This document shows, piece after piece, positions 1 through 7,276 of a stretch of DNA of 7,276 nucleotides (within the stretch, counting starts at the first letter, position 1; each line of letters starts with the position of its first letter). The stretch lies in IMG/VR virus record IMGVR_UViG_2547132272_000004, positions 1 to 7,276 of that record. One strand, given 5' to 3'. The DNA comes from a virus. Lineage: Duplodnaviria; Heunggongvirae; Uroviricota; Caudoviricetes. Both the position numbers and the translations under genes were made by a program. The notes below the pieces were generated by a model. The model had not been told where the DNA came from. It saw only the letters and a program-made list of their open reading frames with translations, and made no database searches.

Positions 1-10
1 AAAATTCACT

Positions 11-66
11 TTAAAAAGGGCGGACATCAGCCAGCAATGAAACTGATGCCGCCAAAAGGTAATCAA
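11..66 (-). ncRNA. dicF: DicF-like small RNA (3' end is an intrinsic terminator); 5' boundary approximate
   Basis: Minus strand reads ...GATTACCTTTTGGCGGCATCAGTTTCATTGCTGGCTGATGTCCGCCCTTTTTAAAG. The GGCGG-ATCAG ... CCGCCC-UUUUU part matches my recollection of the E. coli Qin DicF 3' half. It lies downstream of the dicA-side leftward operon, as in Qin. The 5' part differs from the K-12 sequence as I remember it. Confidence 0.4.
13..53 (-). terminator. Rho-independent terminator of the leftward early operon
   Basis: On the minus strand, stem GGCGGCATCAG / CTGATG(T)CCGCC (forward 19..30 pairs with 43..53, one bulged base), 12-nt loop, followed by a U5 run (forward A-run 13..17). Confidence 0.65.
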
Positions 67-393
67 CATGGGTTGTTGCAGCGGGGTTGTCACTCAGGCG
101 TATGGTCAACCTGACAACCCGGTGTTATCTCGAGGAAAAGATAGCCTCGCCATACTTACCGCCGCGCCATTTCGCGGATTGCCACAACCGGAAGCGCACG
201 GTCGAAGATGCCGGTGGCACGCAACAGAGGGAGAAATAACTTCGCCGTGCGCTTTCGCGTTATGCCCTGACTTTTCAGGGATATATCCTTTCAGTAAACT
301 GTCAGTGCCGGATTCTTATCCGTGTCCGGCGCACGACAACACGCTGTCACGTGTGGTCTCCATTCTCAACCAGTAACCTCAATGGAGGATAAA

Positions 394-636
394 ATGCCAA
401 CAAAACTATGCCCAGCCTGTAATTCTTCGTCTGATTTCTCAGAGAAGAATGGTTATTATATTTTTGATTGCCCGAAACACGGTGTATTCCATATATCAAA
501 ACTTGATGGGATATTTGTGAAACCAAGTCAGTATCAGGCTGACAAGTTAAATAAAATTCTCAATGCCAAAAGAGCGCCAGGCTATACGGGACCTATAGAG
601 GTTTTACCGCGTCCTCGTCTTGTGGAACTGGATTAA
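394..636 (+). CDS. hypothetical small zinc-ribbon-like protein (80 aa), antisense to the leftward operon
   Basis: ATG at 394 with GGAGG at 384..388 (5-nt spacer). CxxC (C6,C9) ... CxxH (C26,H29) pattern. Region visibly AT-rich. The 3' end overlaps the convergent 186-aa gene by 44 bp. An in-frame ATG at 382 has no SD. Confidence 0.5.
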   Translation: MPTKLCPACNSSSDFSEKNGYYIFDCPKHGVFHISKLDGIFVKPSQYQADKLNKILNAKRAPGYTGPIEVLPRPRLVELD

Positions 637-1153
637 ACCAGTGCTCCTGAATCGCTCGTATTTTTACCCTCGGATGATTGCCGGGGGTGATTATTAATTC
701 TGGCGGACATGGTTCTCCATTATGACAAATTGCGCTATAAGTGAAATCAGCCAGAGCAGTGCCGGTCATTATTATTCCGAACTTATCAAGCAGCGAGAGC
801 AAATCACGCAAACAGGAGTTATCAGTTTTTTCGTTATAAAATGAATCCCCTGATGCAGAGAGCATTTCACCTCGCTCTGCGATGCGTTTGACCATTTTCC
901 AGAATTCTTTTTTTGAATACTTTTCCTCGACATAAAAACCCATCGCCGAGGCAATCCGCTTTGCAGCTTCTTCAGTATCCTGGTTGTTTGTTACCGAAAC
1001 AGAGTACAATCCGATAAACGCATCGCGCACATTACGAGCCATATTATCAGTGTCTTTTTTCGTTACCGATTCCAATGCAAGTTCGTTCAGGTGTTGACGG
1101 AGTGTCTGTGCTGCAATCTCCTGGATTGATAGTGGTAAATCTTTAAATTCCAT
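593..1153 (-). CDS. hypothetical protein (186 aa), unknown function, in the early-left operon downstream of the ydfA/ydfB-like genes
   Basis: Long clean ORF. ATG at 1153..1151 with GGGG 6 nt upstream, 11 nt after the stop of the preceding small gene. Protein-like composition. No family recognised from the sequence. Confidence 0.7.
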   Translation of the reverse strand: MEFKDLPLSIQEIAAQTLRQHLNELALESVTKKDTDNMARNVRDAFIGLYSVSVTNNQDTEEAAKRIASAMGFYVEEKYSKKEFWKMVKRIAERGEMLSASGDSFYNEKTDNSCLRDLLSLLDKFGIIMTGTALADFTYSAICHNGEPCPPELIITPGNHPRVKIRAIQEHWFNPVPQDEDAVKPL

Positions 1154-1164
1154 CTTTAACCCCG

Positions 1165-1293
1165 TTAGCCGTTAGATTTTGCCGAACTGGAAAGCGCCTG
1201 TTTAAACTCACTGAAGCTGAGAGCTTCTTCGCCTTCGGCAAGGCCTTCGAAGTATTCTTCGTAAGCCTTTTCCATGATTGTGTCGAAATCCAT
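1165..1293 (-). CDS. small acidic protein (42 aa), YdfB-like by position and size
   Basis: MDFDTIMEKAYEEYFEGLAEGEEALSFSEFKQALSSSAKSNG. ATG 1293..1291 preceded by AGGTGA. Starts 1 nt after the stop of the upstream small gene. Same length and position as ydfB in Qin. An alternative in-frame ATG at 1335 would give 57 aa. Confidence 0.5.
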   Translation of the reverse strand: MDFDTIMEKAYEEYFEGLAEGEEALSFSEFKQALSSSAKSNG

Positions 1294-1294
1294 A

Positions 1295-1450
1295 TCACTC
1301 ACCTGAGTTTCTTTCCAGCCAGCGACGGGCACCATTTTCGGTTTTAAACGTTTTGCTTTTGGTATACGTCATCGCGGTGAACGTACCGTCCTGGTTGGGG
1401 AACACGCCACATACCAGAGATTCGCTGTTGCCAAGATCGATAGTATCCAT
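1295..1450 (-). CDS. small protein (51 aa), YdfA-like by position and size
   Basis: MDTIDLGNSESLVCGVFPNQDGTFTAMTYTKSKTFKTENGARRWLERNSGE. ATG 1450..1448 with GAGGT 4 nt upstream. First gene downstream of the leftward promoter. The ORF-track version extends to 1543, but that extension covers the promoter. Confidence 0.5.
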   Translation of the reverse strand: MDTIDLGNSESLVCGVFPNQDGTFTAMTYTKSKTFKTENGARRWLERNSGE

Positions 1451-1519
1451 GCTGACCTCATTTCCCCTTAACGCCGGGGTAGCGGAACTGTTTGCTGAGA
1501 ACACCGTGCGGTGTCTTGA

Positions 1520-1580
1520 TGGATGGTAATTTAGTTTTCTCATGAAAATTGGTCAAGTGTTTTTGATGAGAAAACTCAAT
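1520..1580 (-). promoter_or_regulatory. leftward early promoter (sigma70-like) with flanking operator inverted repeat
   Basis: On the minus strand: -35 TTGACC (forward 1551..1556), 17-bp spacer, -10 TAAATT (forward 1528..1533). An 11-bp inverted repeat, AGTTTTCTCAT (1533..1543) and ATGAGAAAACT (1566..1576), brackets the -35. The GAGAAAACT core recurs in the dicA/dicC intergenic palindrome. Confidence 0.5.
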
Positions 1581-1643
1581 ATTTAATGCAAAATAAAGCC
1601 AATACATTGAAATGTAAGGCTTTAAAATTAGTGAAGGGGGGGG

Positions 1644-2051
1644 TTATTGATGTTTGTTACGTTTGCGAGCTTCTAGTAGCTCGGTGAATAGGCGATTAAA
1701 ATTCTCAACGCGGGCACGGAGTTCGCTGATTTGTGCTTGCTGCTCTGATTTTGGAAGTGCGCGATACAATCGCAACATCTCCAACTCATCTTCCGATAAG
1801 TCTAAGGCGCTGTTGAGTGCAACTGGTGGATCTGGTGTTTTATCCTCGTCACCAAACAGTATCCAAGTTGGTGAACATTGCAATACCTCAGCCAGGCGAT
1901 GCAAATTTTGCCCGCGCGGGGCTGTATGGTCGCTTTCCCATAGTGAAATTGATGAGCCAGATACGCCAGCAGCTTTGCTTAAATCGTTTTGACTTAAACC
2001 AACCTGTTTGCGTCTTTCTCTAATTCGTTGGCCTAAAGTTTTCTCGTTCAT
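1644..2051 (-). CDS. dicA: DicA-like prophage repressor (XRE-family HTH, 135 aa, no peptidase domain)
   Basis: Translation MNEKTLGQRIRERRK...LQCSPTWILFGDEDK...RARVENFNRLFTELLEARKRNKHQ matches E. coli Qin DicA as I recall it, including LQCSPTWILFGDEDK and the C-terminal RARV.NFN.LF.ELL.AR motif. An upstream in-frame ATG at 2102 would add 17 aa but lies in the operator region. Confidence 0.85.
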   Translation of the reverse strand: MNEKTLGQRIRERRKQVGLSQNDLSKAAGVSGSSISLWESDHTAPRGQNLHRLAEVLQCSPTWILFGDEDKTPDPPVALNSALDLSEDELEMLRLYRALPKSEQQAQISELRARVENFNRLFTELLEARKRNKHQ

Positions 2052-2128
2052 ATTTAGATATCTTAATAACCCTTGACTTGAGATTCCTTGAGTGATTACC
2101 ATTGAGAAAACTCAACTTTGGAGGGGTG
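2052..2128. promoter_or_regulatory. divergent promoter/operator region between the DicA-like and DicC-like genes
   Basis: 77-bp intergenic region. Perfect 14-bp palindrome TTGAGAAAACTCAA at 2102..2115. Direct CTTGAG repeats at about 2078 and 2087. Plus-strand -35-like TTGACT at 2073..2078. 8-bp palindrome AGATATCT at 2056..2063. Exact -10 elements not confidently placed. Confidence 0.55.
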
Positions 2129-2356
2129 ATGTTTAAATCAGACGTAATTAATTTTTATGGGACGAAAGCCAAAGTAGCGAAAGCTGCTGGTGTTGATCCA
2201 TCTGCTGTTTCTCAATGGGGAGAACTGGTTCCTGAAGGTCGCGCGATGCGCCTGCAAGAGGCATCTGGCGGGGAACTTCAGTACGATCCCAAAGTTTATG
2301 ACGAATATCGTAAGGCAAAGCGTGCGGGGCGGTTGAACAATGAAAATCACCCCTGA
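2129..2356 (+). CDS. dicC: DicC/YdaS-like Cro-type HTH regulator (75 aa)
   Basis: ATG 2129 with GGAGG at 2120..2124. FYGTKAKVAKAAGVDPSAVSQWGELVPEGRAMRLQEASGG is the Cro/YdaS/DicC-type HTH signature. Divergent from the DicA-like gene. Confidence 0.75.
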   Translation: MFKSDVINFYGTKAKVAKAAGVDPSAVSQWGELVPEGRAMRLQEASGGELQYDPKVYDEYRKAKRAGRLNNENHP

Positions 2357-2891
2357 ACAGGTTTGTGAGGCTCTGGATGCCTGGGTATGCCGACCAGGAA
2401 TGACACAGGAGCAGGCGACGATATTAATCACAGAAGCCTTCTGGGCCCTGAAAGAACGCCCGAACATCGATGTTCAACGCGTCACGTTTGATGATGGCGC
2501 GGTTGATCAACGGGCGCTGGGCGTTAACCGGGTGAAGATATTCGAACGCTGGAAAGCTATCGACACCAGGGATAAGCGTGAAAAATTCACGGCGCTGATT
2601 CCGGCAATTATGGAGGCTATCCGGATCAGCGATTTCAGGTTGTATTGTGAAATTACTGACGGAAAAAGCATTACGTACATGATCGCCGGGTTAAACAAAG
2701 AATATGGCGATGTGGTGGAGTCCGGGCTGCTTTTTGCGGATCCAGCTGTTGTGGAACGTGAGACTGACGAGCTTATAGAAAAAGCTATTGCTTTCAAGCA
2801 CGCGTATCGTCAGCAATACCAATATTACTTTGCAGATAAACAAATATCTGTCTGGGGTTCGTATGAGTATCGATGCACTACGATGGGCTAA
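2340..2891 (+). CDS. CII-position protein, possibly YdaT-like (183 aa)
   Basis: ATG 2340 overlaps the DicC-like stop by 17 bp, and its 3' end overlaps the next gene (translational coupling). Position matches the RacR-YdaS-YdaT arrangement. The family name is assigned from position and length, not from a confirmed motif. Confidence 0.6.
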   Translation: MKITPEQVCEALDAWVCRPGMTQEQATILITEAFWALKERPNIDVQRVTFDDGAVDQRALGVNRVKIFERWKAIDTRDKREKFTALIPAIMEAIRISDFRLYCEITDGKSITYMIAGLNKEYGDVVESGLLFADPAVVERETDELIEKAIAFKHAYRQQYQYYFADKQISVWGSYEYRCTTMG

Positions 2892-3903
2892 AAAGGTGAA
2901 AACCGGCAGTTCATCCAGTAAGTCAGTATTGACCTGGCTTGCTGATATGTGCGGTGCCGATTTGTGTGCATACCCGTCTGTATCAGCCCTGGCAGAAGTA
3001 ACGGAACTGAACAAAAAGACTGTGCAGGACAGCTTACGACACCTGATGGAGATTGGGTTAATTGTTGATACCGGTGAGAGAAAAGGCAGAACAAAGCAAA
3101 TTGTGGTGTACCGACTTATCGGTGTAGAAGAAAGTGTTGCCGAGCCTGAATACACCCAAAAACGGGAGTCTTTAAAGGTGGGTAAAATTGGTGCTGTTAA
3201 TAAAAACAGTACCGAAAACGGTTATGTTTCAGCACAAAACAGACCCAAAAACGGAACTCTTAACTGCATGGAAAATAACCAAAGACACCCAAATTTTCCA
3301 TTAAAGACACCCAAAAACGGATCACGGAACCCAAAGGAACCCAAAGATCTAAACCCCACACATAACGCACGCGAGAGTGCTCCGACCAGTGAGCAGGATG
3401 TTTTGTCGTTACAGGCAACGCCCCCTGTATTCCTGGATGGCCTGAGCGAACCCATCGGAAAATTTCCGATGACCGATAGCTGGCATCCGTCGCGGGATTT
3501 TCGGCGACGGGCTGCGTTGTGGGGGATGGCTTTGCCGGAACCAGAATTTACACCTGCTGAACTTGCCGCCTTCCGGGACTACTGGGCAGCGGAGGGGAAA
3601 GTTTTCACGCAGGTTCAGTGGGAGCAGAAATTCGCCCGTCACGTAAATCACGTCAGGGCGCAGGCTAAACCAGTCAGCAAGGGGGTAAACCATGCAGCAG
3701 CACCAGGTGGCACCGCATCACGGGCAGTTCAGGAAATTCGGGCAGCACGTGAGCGGTGGGAGCGTGAAAACGGATTTATCAACGACGGAAACTGCCTGGA
3801 AGCTGTGGGAACTCATGGGGGAGGTTTATTCGAACCGCTGGACCCAGAAGAACGGGGCCGCACCTTCGAAGCTCTGGATTGCACAGATTGGCGCGATGAC
3901 TGA
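2863..3903 (+). CDS. replication initiator, lambda O-like organisation (N-terminal winged-HTH, iteron-encoding linker, C-terminal domain)
   Basis: ATG 2863 (MSIDALRWAKK...). The N-terminal 90 aa look like a wHTH DNA-binding domain. The central low-complexity stretch is encoded by iteron-like DNA repeats. A P-like gene follows. Confidence 0.7.
   Translation: MSIDALRWAKKVKTGSSSSKSVLTWLADMCGADLCAYPSVSALAEVTELNKKTVQDSLRHLMEIGLIVDTGERKGRTKQIVVYRLIGVEESVAEPEYTQKRESLKVGKIGAVNKNSTENGYVSAQNRPKNGTLNCMENNQRHPNFPLKTPKNGSRNPKEPKDLNPTHNARESAPTSEQDVLSLQATPPVFLDGLSEPIGKFPMTDSWHPSRDFRRRAALWGMALPEPEFTPAELAAFRDYWAAEGKVFTQVQWEQKFARHVNHVRAQAKPVSKGVNHAAAPGGTASRAVQEIRAARERWERENGFINDGNCLEAVGTHGGGLFEPLDPEERGRTFEALDCTDWRDD
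3152..3347. repeat. iteron-like direct repeats (putative prophage origin) inside the initiator gene
   Basis: Perfect 12-mer ACCCAAAAACGG at 3154..3165, 3243..3254 and 3309..3320. Degenerate copies at 3211..3221 (ACCGAAAACGG), 3288..3294, 3329..3337 and 3339..3347. AAAGACACCCAAA occurs at 3281..3293 and 3303..3315. Confidence 0.55.
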
Positions 3904-4357
3904 GCAGCAAATCCGGCAGGTCTGCCGCCAGTGCATGGACCGTTGCAGGGCAGGTGAAACATGGCCTCCGGACCTGGCTGAGTTTGTGGCGCTGATTTCG
4001 GAAAGCGGGGCCAATCCATTTGGTCTGACGGTGGATGCTGTGATGGAGGAGTACCGACGCTGGCGCAATGAGTCCTGGCGATACGACGGAAGCGATAAAT
4101 ATCCGTGGCCTCAGCCTGTGCTGTATCACATTTGCCTCGAGATGCGTTCAAAGGGGATTGAGCGCCAGATGACCGAAGGTGAGTTAAAACGACTTGCAGA
4201 ACGGCAACTGGCGAAATGGGCAAAGCATGTTGGTGACGGCTTCAGCGTTCCGCCCGTACGGCGGCAACTGGCAGCACCAAAACGCCCGTCGGGGCCAACA
4301 CCAATTGAGTTGCTGAAACAGGAGTATGAACGCCGGAAAGCGGCTGGTTTTGTATGA
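3692..4357 (+). CDS. lambda P-like replication protein (helicase loader); start uncertain
   Basis: The C-terminal half (..WPPDLAEFVAL..KYPWPQP..) resembles lambda P as I recall it. ATG 3692 has GGGGG 6 nt upstream but would overlap the O-like gene by 212 bp in another frame. Alternative starts are ATG 3815 and ATG 3896, the latter in an ATGACTGA coupling arrangement. Confidence 0.6.
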   Translation: MQQHQVAPHHGQFRKFGQHVSGGSVKTDLSTTETAWKLWELMGEVYSNRWTQKNGAAPSKLWIAQIGAMTEQQIRQVCRQCMDRCRAGETWPPDLAEFVALISESGANPFGLTVDAVMEEYRRWRNESWRYDGSDKYPWPQPVLYHICLEMRSKGIERQMTEGELKRLAERQLAKWAKHVGDGFSVPPVRRQLAAPKRPSGPTPIELLKQEYERRKAAGFV

Positions 4358-4387
4358 ATTGTGAAGGTGATTTTTTCAGGAGGATTT

Positions 4388-4615
4388 ATGGCGAAACCTT
4401 TTTCTCTCGAACAGCGGGAAGAGCTGAAGGCACGAATTATCGGATTGGTACGCAAAAATGGACGCATGACGATGTCACAGCTGGAGAGAGCGACGGGAGC
4501 AGGCTGGCATTCGGTTCGACGCTGCCTTGTGGATGTGCTGGCTTGTGGCGATTTATACATGTCCGGTAAATACGGTGTTTTTTGCATCAGAGCAGGCGTA
4601 TCGCGTATGGCGTAA
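4388..4615 (+). CDS. hypothetical small protein (75 aa), possible winged-helix DNA-binding fold
   Basis: ATG 4388 with AGGAGG at 4378..4383. The segment MTMSQLERATGAGWHSVRRCLVDVL is HTH-like. Contains the T6 run at 4578..4583. Confidence 0.6.
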   Translation: MAKPFSLEQREELKARIIGLVRKNGRMTMSQLERATGAGWHSVRRCLVDVLACGDLYMSGKYGVFCIRAGVSRMA

Positions 4616-4784
4616 GACACCGGAGAAAAGAACCGACCTGACACTGATTCGAAAGTTACCAGACGGAGAAATACGCCGCTACGACAGGCGTCAGAACATA
4701 ATCTGTAGCGAGTGCCGGAAGAGCGAAGCTATGCAGCGCGTACTGGCGTTTTATCAGGGTAATTTTCAGGAGGTGGTGCGGTGA
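4533..4784 (+). CDS. hypothetical ORF overlapping the preceding gene, possibly its frameshifted continuation
   Basis: No start codon or SD lies downstream of the 4615 stop in this frame. The 3' end is coupled to the next gene (GTGA at 4781..4784). A one-base change in the T6 run at 4578..4583 would fuse it in frame to the 4388 ORF. Confidence 0.35.
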   Translation: MCWLVAIYTCPVNTVFFASEQAYRVWRKTPEKRTDLTLIRKLPDGEIRRYDRRQNIICSECRKSEAMQRVLAFYQGNFQEVVR

Positions 4785-5047
4785 GTGAATCAAAATGCCA
4801 GGTTAAGGGCAACAAGATAGAACCATGTGCAGCACTGGCAAAGTCCCTTGAGCATGATGCTGAATACACGATGCGAAAAGGTCTGCTGATATACAAAGTC
4901 TGGAATGAGAATTTAACTCGCGCCCCTGATTTGGTGATGTTGCGTTCCGGTGAATTTTCTAAATCACCTATTCGAGTCTCATTTTGCCCGTTCTGTGGTG
5001 AAAGTCTGAAAACATGGAAAAAGGAGACAACCAGTGAGCAAGATTGA
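4781..5047 (+). CDS. hypothetical small protein (88 aa) with C-terminal CPFC motif
   Basis: GTG start at 4781 with AGGAGG at 4768..4773 (7-nt spacer). Cysteines at C6, C16 and C69-x2-C72. Confidence 0.6.
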   Translation: MSESKCQVKGNKIEPCAALAKSLEHDAEYTMRKGLLIYKVWNENLTRAPDLVMLRSGEFSKSPIRVSFCPFCGESLKTWKKETTSEQD

Positions 5048-5933
5048 CTATCAGGCACTGCGTGAGGCGGCGGAACGTGCAATTCCAGCAATGGAACGCC
5101 TGTTAATGTTGCCAGCTGATGATGATTTGTTAAGTGAACAGGAACTTAAAGATTACGGTGTGGATATTGATGCGCTCAACGCCTTCAAATTTCTGGCCGG
5201 ACCAGAAACCGTGCTGGCACTACTGGATGAACGGGAAAGAAACCAGCAATACATAAAACGCCGAGACCAGGAAAACGAAATGATGGTTGATGCCATGCAC
5301 GCGGCTATTGCCCTGACAAGTGTTGGAATAGACCTGGACGATTACGACGAATGCGTCTTGCGACTACATGAATGGGGCGCTTTACCTGACTATTGCATTG
5401 CGCTTTATGTGGATTTCGTTCACGGAATTGTATCGAAAAACAAACTTCTGGATTTTGGTTATATCAACGGTGCACCGGTATGGACGTTGCGTGATGAGCT
5501 GGAAGCCGCAGAGAACAACCTTATTGATAGTGAGTGCCATGTTGCTGAACTGGAAGAAGCGCTACGCGATAAGCAGGCGTTACTTGAAGCATCAGAGAAG
5601 CGCATAGCAGAACTGGAAACAAAAGCGAACCAGCAAACCAGAATAAGCGATAAGGGGCTGACAAAGCTGATTGCCGATGCTGACAAAATGCTGGGTATGC
5701 GTTCGCCGGTTATAGACAGCGAGTGGTGGACGCTTTTACGGCAGTTCCTGATTGAACTTCAGGATCGCCGCAGAAACAGCATTTCTGAATCTGGAATCCG
5801 TGCTGAAACCCTGAATGATTTAATCCGACATATTGACAGAAACCTGGATATTGACGCGATGAAATCGCCGTTTGAACTGTCATCTGAAATTGTGGATTAC
5901 GTTAATAGGCAACTGCACAAGGAGAATTCGTAA
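5034..5933 (+). CDS. hypothetical coiled-coil protein (299 aa); N-terminus reminiscent of Ead/Ea22-like prophage proteins
   Basis: GTG start at 5034 with AAGGAGA at 5021..5027. The N-terminal M.IDYQALREAAERA resembles Ead/Ea22-like N-termini from memory only. Central heptad-like acidic region (ELEAAENNLIDSECHVAELEEALRDKQALLEASEKRIAELE). Confidence 0.65.
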   Translation: MSKIDYQALREAAERAIPAMERLLMLPADDDLLSEQELKDYGVDIDALNAFKFLAGPETVLALLDERERNQQYIKRRDQENEMMVDAMHAAIALTSVGIDLDDYDECVLRLHEWGALPDYCIALYVDFVHGIVSKNKLLDFGYINGAPVWTLRDELEAAENNLIDSECHVAELEEALRDKQALLEASEKRIAELETKANQQTRISDKGLTKLIADADKMLGMRSPVIDSEWWTLLRQFLIELQDRRRNSISESGIRAETLNDLIRHIDRNLDIDAMKSPFELSSEIVDYVNRQLHKENS

Positions 5934-6109
5934 TGCAGGTGGCATTTGTTGGCTTGTTACCGCATCCGATCCGCCTTTGGGCGGATATGTCACTCATAAA
6001 AACGCATTTTTTTACTACTGATGGCGGCATTCCGGCACCAAAGCGCCGCCATACCGGTATTGCAGCGGCACGACGAGCAGCAAAGAGACGCAGGAGAGCA
6101 AAACGATGA
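5933..6109 (+). CDS. hypothetical small protein (58 aa), hydrophobic N-terminus and Arg/Lys-rich tail
   Basis: ATG 5933 overlaps the upstream stop (TAATG), with AAGGAGAA 6 nt upstream. Below the ORF-track size cutoff. Two GC-rich hairpins lie within it, so coding status is uncertain. Confidence 0.35.
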   Translation: MQVAFVGLLPHPIRLWADMSLIKTHFFTTDGGIPAPKRRHTGIAAARRAAKRRRRAKR

Positions 6110-6294
6110 AAAACCGTAAAGCAAAGATTCTGTTAGCTCGCAGAAACGGTGTTGGGGTCTGGCGATGGTTGAGGATTAGTAACAGACGAGTGAGGTTGAC
6201 GGGGTGTTGCGGGGTGATGGGTCACAGCTGTTGCAAAAAGCCCAGCGCGGCGCAAAACCGCTGGAAAAACCACTTGCGCACTAAAGGAGAGTGA
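6106..6294 (+). CDS. hypothetical small basic protein (62 aa), Arg- and Cys-rich
   Basis: ATG 6106 overlaps the previous stop (ATGA), with AGGAG 9 nt upstream. Stop is 1 nt before the HNH gene start. Unusual composition. Confidence 0.35.
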   Translation: MKNRKAKILLARRNGVGVWRWLRISNRRVRLTGCCGVMGHSCCKKPSAAQNRWKNHLRTKGE

Positions 6295-6295
6295 T

Positions 6296-6661
6296 ATGGC
6301 ACTGACGAAAAAACAACGTGCAGAACTGCGCATGAAGTTCGGCGGTCGCTGCGCTTATTGCGGCTGCGAACTTGGCGAAAAGTGGCATGCAGACCATGTA
6401 AAACCGGTCATTCGTTTTGATGGAAATATGCTTCACCAGGAACGTGACGATATATCCAACATGGTTCCGGCATGCCACCCATGCAATCTGCACAAGCATT
6501 GCAGTAGCCTGGAAGATTATCGGCGAATTATCAGTGATGGTCGTCGTGAATTCCTTGCGTCCGGGAAAGGCAAAGCGCTGGTTCGTATGGGATTGGTTGA
6601 AATGAAACCTGACCCGGTTGTGTTCTGGTTTGAAAAATATCAAGAAGGGGCTACAGCATGA
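6296..6661 (+). CDS. HNH endonuclease (121 aa)
   Basis: AAGGAGA at 6283..6289 before ATG 6296. Canonical HNH/zinc-finger pattern: CAYCGC ... HADHVKP ... [14 protein letters not shown]. Confidence 0.85.
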
Positions 6662-7002
6662 CGACTTTTACCAGAGAGCAGTTAATAGCTCACGCAGAGG
6701 AGACTATTGAAGCACAGAGACTGTGCATACCGGGCACAATCGACCATGACATCATCCGCACATATAAGATGGATATTGCTGTTCTGGAAATCGCACTGGT
6801 ATCGCTGGCAGCAGAGCCAGCCGGTAAATTGCATGAATACAAACCAGTGGGATATCAGCGTCTGGTTGATGAGTTAATCATGCTGGTAAAGCAGTTAACC
6901 TGGCAACTGAGGAAAGCGAAGCCAGACTGCAAATTACCGGATAAGGCGATGAGTTATCTGGAGCGGAACGGACTGATAAGCGTGGAGGATATTTTACGAT
7001 GA
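6658..7002 (+). CDS. hypothetical protein (114 aa)
   Basis: ATG 6658 overlaps the HNH stop (ATGA), consistent with translational coupling. Protein-like composition. No family recognised. Confidence 0.6.
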
Positions 7003-7235
7003 CTGGCCTGAAGCATTCACAACGGTAGGAATTGCGATGGCAGTGGCGCTGGTGGTGTATTCGATTTGCCGCTGGGGATAAAAACGGTTTGCGGGAAAAA
7101 GGGAGTTAAGTAAAATTGCTGCGGGTGCTTGAGGCTATCTGTCTCAGGCATGAACACCAAAAGGCAGATAGAGAAAAGCCCCAGTTAACATTACGCGTCC
7201 TGCAAGACGCTTAACATTAATCTGAGGCCCAATCT

Positions 7236-7276
7236 ATGTCTCACAAATGTAGGTTAGCCTCTTACGTGCCGAAAGG
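7236..7276 (+). CDS. possible 5' end of a CDS running off the window (MSHKCRLASYVPK...)
   Basis: ATG 7236 with GAGG at 7224..7227. Open to the window end. Only 13 codons are visible. Confidence 0.25.
   Translation, partial: MSHKCRLASYVPK

Follow-up and report, generated by a model that had tools for sequence, protein, structure and literature searches.

The question raised by this locus is what reads a short motif that is found at both early promoters of a prophage immunity region. The locus lies in a stretch of 7,276 nucleotides from a member of the Caudoviricetes (IMG/VR record IMGVR_UViG_2547132272_000004, positions 1 to 7,276; the window hereafter), and these 7.3 kb make up the early control and replication region of a lambdoid prophage of Escherichia coli. 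Judged by its sequence, the immunity region is lambdoid and of the DicA/DicC type known from Qin of E. coli K-12, with a gene for a DicA-like repressor and a divergent gene for a Cro/DicC-like protein. Lambdoid immunity modules are swapped between phages. One copy of the motif lies between the two divergent genes and two copies lie at the leftward promoter, and the three are very probably the operators of this switch, at which the repressor, and also the Cro-like protein, would act on both early promoters.

Three copies of a 14-bp motif at the early promoters

A sequence-only reading of the window had reported a motif shared by the divergent control region and the leftward promoter, and its coordinates and sequences were correct: positions 2102–2115 read TTGAGAAAACTCAA, and the 11-bp inverted repeat formed by 1533–1543 (AGTTTTCTCAT) and 1566–1576 (ATGAGAAAACT) is exact, and extends to 20-nt arms that are 90% complementary (1529–1548 and 1561–1580). 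Its description of the former as a perfect 14-bp palindrome had to be corrected, since the reverse complement of TTGAGAAAACTCAA is TTGAGTTTTCTCAA; the symmetry is confined to the 5-bp arms TTGAG and CTCAA (10/14 positions), around an asymmetric AAAA centre. The shared 9-bp core GAGAAAACT is likewise replaced as the probable functional unit by the 14-bp P22-type core TTGAG-N4-CTCAA. The recurring 13-mer TGAGAAAACTCAA is found without mismatch at 1567–1579 and 2103–2115, and with one mismatch on the minus strand at 1530–1542. A weaker fourth copy at 2034–2046 (3 mismatches to the 13-mer, with its GAGAAAACT core at 2037–2045) lies within the initial codons of the repressor and is absent from a Buttiauxella relative, and was set aside as incidental.

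The three copies are referred to as OR1 in the right operator region (OR), and OL1 and OL2 in the left operator region (OL); coordinates are given in Table 1. A promoter scan recovered the leftward promoter (PL) with 9/12 hexamer matches, and placed two copies of the motif on either side of its -35 element, in agreement with the sequence-only reading, with the downstream copy over the -10. OL2 is inverted relative to OL1, and overlaps both the -10 and the spacer. At the other end of the repressor gene, OR1 covers the final base of the -10 of the cro-like promoter (PR), together with its predicted start. That these copies arose by chance from AT-rich intergenic sequence or from constraints on promoter sequence is extremely improbable: both regions are AT-rich, the outer arm of OL2 overlaps the -10 hexamer, and mononucleotide shuffling of the 130-nt PL region gave a 14-mer match with at most one mismatch in 6/300 trials, but a search of the whole window with the 13-mer at no more than one mismatch gave 3 matches versus 0.03 expected (a number reached in 0/200 shuffles), and the sites are conserved against variable flanks and retained across genera.

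Conservation was assessed with a profile search, which returned 80 IMG/VR loci with repressors 96–100% identical and 21 genome loci at 31–96% identity; the same-type set consisted of 86 loci (repressor 96–100% identical, plus a 75%-identical one from Buttiauxella). In related prophages, where the sequence-only reading had expected the motif to recur, the three sites were indeed conserved within variable flanks, with all three 14-mers identical to those of the window in 65/86 same-type loci, and mostly one substitution in one site in the remaining 21. Deviating sequences averaged 0.54 per column for the 28 site columns of 53 distinct PL sequences, versus 9.0 for the 36 neighbouring columns outside the sites and the -35 (Mann-Whitney p ~1e-5, which is only indicative because the sequences are related). 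The TTGAC of the PL -35 and the PL -10 were kept across these 53 sequences and across immunity types, and the most variable bases of the region were those of the spacer on either side of the -35, as would be expected if only protein-contacted blocks are constrained. Among 24 distinct OR sequences, OR1 showed 3 variant entries in total over its 14 columns. A prophage of Buttiauxella gaviniae, of which the repressor is 75% identical and has the same type of recognition region (S-D-SSISLWES), carries TTGAGAAAACTCAG at OR1 and OL1 and TTGAGAAAACTAAA at OL2, retained while the adjacent DNA, -35 included, diverged. The same module is also found in the temperate phages HannyBb and mEp460_ev081, with a repressor 96% identical and the three 14-mers identical; mEp460_ev081 is described as a functional phage with dicA, dicC and rem homologues (PMC10448788). 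The records of both phages carry generic annotation only, such as 'transcriptional repressor' or 'Phage repressor protein C2', and a literature search found neither an operator description for either phage, nor a paper giving the exact motif or operator sequence of this immunity type.

The inverted repeat at 1529–1580 could alternatively form an RNA or DNA hairpin (an attenuator, processing site or terminator) rather than a pair of protein sites, as the minus-strand RNA folds at -12.1 kcal/mol (z -3.4) and Buttiauxella shows a joint change at the first OL1 base and the last OL2 base. However, this double change brings both sites nearer to the TTGAG consensus, single-arm variants in approximately 17 loci are never compensated in the opposite arm, and the copy at 2102–2115 has no inverted partner. 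In addition, OL1 and OL2 of a relative of another immunity type (L006) match better in direct (11/14) than in inverted orientation (8/14), and with the -35 in the loop most of the structure would be upstream of the transcript start. We therefore regard the hairpin as highly improbable.

The OR region has one full site and two weak positions at 24/25-bp spacing, while OL has two sites 36 bp apart. The first weak position, Om, is conserved within the type, with only its xTGAG half retained in Buttiauxella, and is possibly a weak or cooperative site. The TTGAG at 2088–2092 was considered as a direct-repeat half-site and rejected, as its last G varies (TTGAA) in 5/24 distinct OR sequences, and it also falls just beyond the 14-bp Om frame. 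The second weak position, Oa, is part of the near-palindrome TATTTAGATATCTTAATA (2051–2068), which adjoins the start codon of the repressor gene; none of its first 16 columns varies among the 24 distinct OR sequences, and it is retained in relatives from Buttiauxella, Citrobacter and Superficieibacter despite their differing main operators. Possible roles for Oa are those of a weak site like OR3, of a part of the (leaderless) repressor promoter, or of a site for another protein. Looping between OL and OR with helical phasing found no support, with distances between OR1 and OL1 of 533–536 bp within the type and 511–549 bp between types; the within-type range results from the G-run at 1636–1643, which varies from GGGGG to GGGGGGGG. 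This run adjoins the repressor stop codon, and its length differs among otherwise near-identical loci.

Comparison with K-12 Qin and other immunity types

In E. coli K-12, DicA binds the operator Oc, a 20-bp dyad (TTGTTAGTTATGACTAACAA) that overlaps the dicC -10, with repression of dicC and activation of dicA as the outcome; in an in-vivo assay this binding was lost when single bases of Oc were changed, whereas Om and Oa, operators predicted from sequence, are not bound by DicA alone, and the start of the dicC promoter was mapped by 5' rapid amplification of cDNA ends (PMC3441716). A further promoter repressed by DicA is dicBp, which lies upstream of ydfA (PMC10448788) and at which a Reg-Seq study gave the DicA binding location as unknown (PMC7567609). 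The repressor of the window is 56% identical to K-12 DicA over 128 aa, with only helix-turn-helix families found in Pfam and no S24 peptidase or LexA-type cleavage domain, and K-12 DicA likewise has 135 aa and no cleavage domain. The Cro-like protein is 71% identical to DicC, and the divergent genes are separated by an intergenic control region of 77 bp (2052–2128). Gene order is also the same in K-12 Qin, with ydfB-ydfA, promoter, terminator, repressor and divergent cro, and the leftward operon differs beyond ydfB, where the window has an open reading frame (ORF) of 186 aa versus ydfC in Qin. The window combines a short helix-turn-helix repressor, a divergent P22-Cro-like gene, a dyad at the Oc position and, 3' of the repressor gene and with ydfA-ydfB next, a leftward promoter that is predicted to be under repressor control.

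The likeness extends to the control elements, as Qin also has a strong operator over the cro -10 (the Oc position), a dicC promoter with a layout homologous to that of PR, and, at the spacings seen in the window, two operator-like dyads on either side of the leftward promoter's conserved -35 (TTGACC). The OR/OL-like arrangement put forward in the sequence-only reading, with one repressor controlling two early promoters, is supported by this comparison: the rightward site is at the position of K-12 Oc, and the two leftward sites flank the -35 of the dicBp equivalent. When K-12 is read in the orientation of the window, its leader and both -35 elements (TTGACC and TTGACT) match the window at every base, and the positions of the three copies are occupied by TTAGT-TATG-ACTAA (Oc), TTAGC-CATG-ACTAA and TATGC-TATA-GCTAA. 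This pattern indicates an exchange of operators and immunity genes as one set, on a promoter scaffold that was retained. It also suggests that the DicA sites at K-12 dicBp are the two dyads flanking the -35. K-12 DicA has TTAGT/TTAGC half-sites and the recognition region SHVSVSQWER, where the window has TTGAG and SGSSISLWES; the half-site TTAGT and helix SHVSVSQ that mark the specificity of K-12 DicA are thus not those of the window, and the two should therefore be heteroimmune.

Heteroimmune relatives had motifs of their own, with type-specific half-sites at equivalent positions. The recognition region SHVSVSQ of K-12 Qin goes with half-sites TTAGT/TTAGC, AHVTISQ (L005, L006) with TTAGG/TTAGA, SGSSISL of the window with TTGAG, and SDSSISL of Buttiauxella with TTGAG/CTGAG, while the Citrobacter (L090) and Superficieibacter (L091) relatives have (H/Y)A(T/S)ISL and at least one TTGAG half per site. 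The five types compared all have their own half-sites at identical positions, with spacings of 24–26 bp for Oa-Om-OR1 and of 35–36 bp for OL2-OL1 across the -35, and the motif therefore tracks the DNA-binding proteins, not the promoters. We relied on this comparison by position because a test for 14-mers shared between OR and PL had little power in AT-rich DNA: in 15 diverse loci, the best pairs were matched by 0–6/300 shuffles in nine, and by 23–194/300 shuffles in the other six.

The covariation also bears on the possibility that another factor binds the sites, either the YdaT/CII-like protein or a host nucleoid protein (Fis, H-NS/Cnu or IHF). The gene for the CII-like YdaT follows cro, and H-NS/Cnu and Fis/Hfq influence the dicA-dicB region of K-12 (PMC3441716, PMC10448788). 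Binding by host proteins, however, would not call for a motif that differs between immunity types, YdaT-like proteins are common, at high DNA identity, to loci with different operators, and the geometry of the sites fits a dimer of the P22 c2 type. In four genome matches (H6-H9), the flanks match the window and the immunity core does not. Taken together, such a factor is a very improbable reader of the motif.

The P22 c2 frame and the proteins that may read the sites

The first 72 residues of the repressor match the N-terminal domain of P22 c2 (E 2e-15; PDB 1ADR, 2R1J). The c2 operator consensus ATTTAAGATATCTTAAAT consists of two TTAAG half-sites 4 bp apart (TTAAG-ATAT-CTTAA), with V33 of c2 packing against the methyl groups of TTAA and Q37 near the adjacent T (PMC5175364). 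This frame of 5+4+5 bp (14-bp core) is identical to that of the window, which accounts for the recurrence of a 14-bp unit with 5-bp arms; TTGAG-AAAA-CTCAA differs from the P22 operator by one base in each half-site and by the A-tract in the centre. Aligned to N32, V33, A34 and Q37 of c2, the repressor of the window has G, S, S and L (V33S and Q37L), while K-12 DicA, with half-site TTAGT, retains V and Q at positions 33 and 37, which suggests candidate residues for the setting of half-site specificity. The strong sites of the window have TTGA, and not the TTAA half-site that is read by Val33 in P22, and the site is predicted to work as a P22-like operator without P22 immunity. There are further differences from P22, as c2 has 216 aa with a RecA-cleavable C-terminal domain (PMC10448788) and the repressor of the window 135 aa without such a domain, and both OR and OL of P22 contain three good sites, where the window has one strong OR site with two weak positions and two OL sites. 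The divergent repressor and cro genes, the use of one repressor on two early promoters and the spacing of the OR candidates (24–25 bp) are shared with lambda CI/Cro and its tripartite OR and OL, which differ in their 17-bp frame and in an operator sequence that is unrelated; three functional sites found no support in the window.

It is also conceivable that the Cro/DicC-like protein mainly or solely reads the sites, and that the repressor recognises something else. The recognition region of Cro also differs among immunity types, and a small hint comes from two IMG/VR loci (L044, L058), which share a G-to-A change in both OR1 (TTAAG...) and OL1 (ATAAG...), with a repressor identical to that of the window and a Cro with E32K just past the recognition helix. 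This pattern may represent co-variation of operator and Cro, or shared ancestry of operator-down mutations. We consider a main or exclusive role of Cro quite improbable, as DicA binds the homologous Oc of K-12 (PMC3441716), the half-site departs from that of P22 exactly where the repressor departs from the base-reading residues of c2, no other repeated dyad was found at both promoters, and lambdoid repressor and Cro share operators.

As a tentative proposal, on which we remain somewhat more sceptical than convinced, the P22 c2-type domains of DicA-like repressors may constitute a natural allelic series, in which the residues aligned to c2 positions 32–34 and 37 re-specify bases 3–5 of the half-site. 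The recognition code would pair NVA/Q with TTAAG, HVS/Q with TTAGT, HVT/Q with TTAGG and GSS/L with TTGAG, and if true would be directly testable. In a bolder version, extra information may reside in the strictly conserved, oriented A4 centre and in the P22-like palindrome at Oa, for example for activating the repressor promoter in a direction-dependent way or for cross-talk with P22-type repressors of co-resident prophages.

Proposed switch and its genomic setting

Sequence, positions, conservation, covariation with immunity type and homology are observed; binding, cooperativity, activation and the use of the sites by Cro are what we infer, and the switch would work as follows. A dimer of the 135-aa repressor would place one c2-like helix-turn-helix on each TTGAG half of the 14-bp core. 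At OR1 it would cover the PR -10 and start, and shut off the rightward operon with cro, the YdaT/CII-like gene and the replication genes; on the model of DicA at Oc in K-12, occupancy of OR1 may also stimulate the weak repressor promoter. At OL2 the repressor would cover the -10 and spacer of the leftward promoter, with a second dimer, probably cooperative, at OL1, 36 bp away beyond the -35; both together would silence ydfA-ydfB and the genes downstream (in the closest genome, these include dicB, exo, xis and int). When the switch flips, the same sites are most likely used by the Cro-like protein. With a repressor that lacks a RecA-cleavable domain, induction should depend on an antirepressor (Rem in Qin) or on bistability/stochastic switching (PMC10448788).

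Several points weigh against the assignment of the three copies as operators of this switch. The operators are always accompanied by both the repressor and Cro, and comparisons therefore cannot say which of the two proteins reads them. The tripartite reading of OR is weak, because K-12 DicA showed no binding to Om or to Oa alone, and the relatedness of the PL sequences limits the weight of their conservation statistic. A symmetric dimer that touches only the arms does not explain the perfectly conserved asymmetric AAAA. Finally, about one quarter of the same-type loci have a single-base change in one site; these may reflect decay in cryptic prophages, and the sites are not inviolable.

Table 1. 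Operators, promoters and genes of the window; genes were assigned from the ORF list and from Pfam and PHROGs matches.
Feature	Position	Strand	Sequence or description
OR1 (equivalent of K-12 Oc), main operator	2102–2115		TTGAG AAAA CTCAA; predicted
OL1	1566–1579		ATGAG AAAA CTCAA; 13/14 identical to OR1, direct orientation; upstream of PL -35
OL2	1530–1543		plus strand TTTAGTTTTCTCAT; minus strand ATGAG AAAA CTAAA
Om position	2078–2091		TTGAG ATTC CTTGA; one perfect half-site; 24 bp from OR1, 25 bp from Oa
Oa position	2053–2066		TTTAG ATAT CTTAA; near-palindrome, 13/14 identical to P22 c2 operator core
PL / dicBp equivalent	1528–1556	-	-35 TTGACC (1556–1551), 17-nt spacer, -10 TAAATT (1533–1528)
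PR / dicCp equivalent	2073–2102	+	-35 TTGACT (2073–2078), 18-nt spacer, -10 TACCAT (2097–2102)
Repressor gene, DicA-like, 135 aa	1644–2051	-	HTH_3; N-terminal match to P22 c2
Cro/DicC-like gene, 75 aa	2129–2356	+	P22_Cro family, E 1e-17 (Pfam)
YdaT/CII-like gene	2340–2891		rightward of cro
DnaT-domain O-like replication gene, lambda-P-like gene, Ren-like gene, HNH endonuclease			rightward, beyond YdaT
ydfA (DUF1391)	1295–1450	-	first gene of leftward operon
ydfB	1165–1293		leftward operon, after ydfA
186-aa ORF			leftward of ydfB; function unassigned
Hairpin then U-run	1594–1624	-	-11.3 kcal/mol, z -3.5; conserved in same-type loci

The hairpin at 1594–1624 is the probable intrinsic terminator of the repressor gene, separating this gene from the leftward promoter, and Rfam gave no match within the control region. 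The minus-strand leader from PL to ydfA (1455–1520) is almost invariant, even between immunity types and genera, and contains a hairpin (minus strand AACACC-GCAC-GGTGTT, approximately 1500–1516), the stem of which reads AATCAC...GTGATT in relatives from Enterobacter and Citrobacter. It may act as a nut-like element or in RNA processing, although RNAalifold found no consensus structure for the conserved PL leader with a quick MAFFT alignment. Partial matches to the 1.3-kb control region were present in 3,881/5,426 complete E. coli genomes, and matches over at least 80% of its length in 767/5,426. In the top genome match (L002, 97% identical) the leftward operon runs on into dicB, an exonuclease gene, xis and int. 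This immunity region was also present at 96% identity in L087 and L088, and a K-12-type region in L092, all of them contigs filed under metagenome-assembled genomes named Bacillota, Veillonella parvula and Collinsella, which most likely reflects binning contamination and not a real host range.

Further from the control region, the O-like (2863–3903) and P-like (3692–4357) ORFs as listed share approximately 210 bp (3692–3903), and the true start of P is probably downstream of 3692, because a related genome annotates P from a later start (462 bp). The slot of ydfC in K-12 Qin is taken by two convergent overlapping ORFs (394–636, plus strand, 80 aa; 593–1153, minus strand, 186 aa), neither of which had a Pfam match, with PHROGs matches of unknown function only; as the PHROG families match only the N-terminal ~60–100 residues of the 186-aa protein, its C-terminal part may be variable. 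A match to the Rfam sok antitoxin RNA at 7123–7276 (plus strand, 101 bits) is cut off by the end of the window, and a hok/sok-type toxin-antitoxin locus follows the early-right genes (hokD in the related locus L002).

The switch is of an ordinary, well-understood kind, which leaves the accepted picture of lambdoid switches unchanged, and its architecture has already been described for Qin (cited in PMC10448788). New here are the predicted operator sequence of this common immunity type, the placement of the two leftward sites and the comparison with the P22 frame. The immunity type is found in 767/5,426 complete E. coli genomes and in viable temperate phages, and the operon of its leftward promoter includes the cell-division inhibitor dicB in the closest genome. 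With TTGAG-N4-CTCAA as the operator, superinfection immunity groups would become predictable from sequence, and the operator would also serve the design of reporters and derepression mutants and the reading of operator variants in cryptic prophages. Together with P22 and K-12 DicA, this immunity type provides a compact natural data set on shifts of helix-turn-helix specificity by one or two bases.

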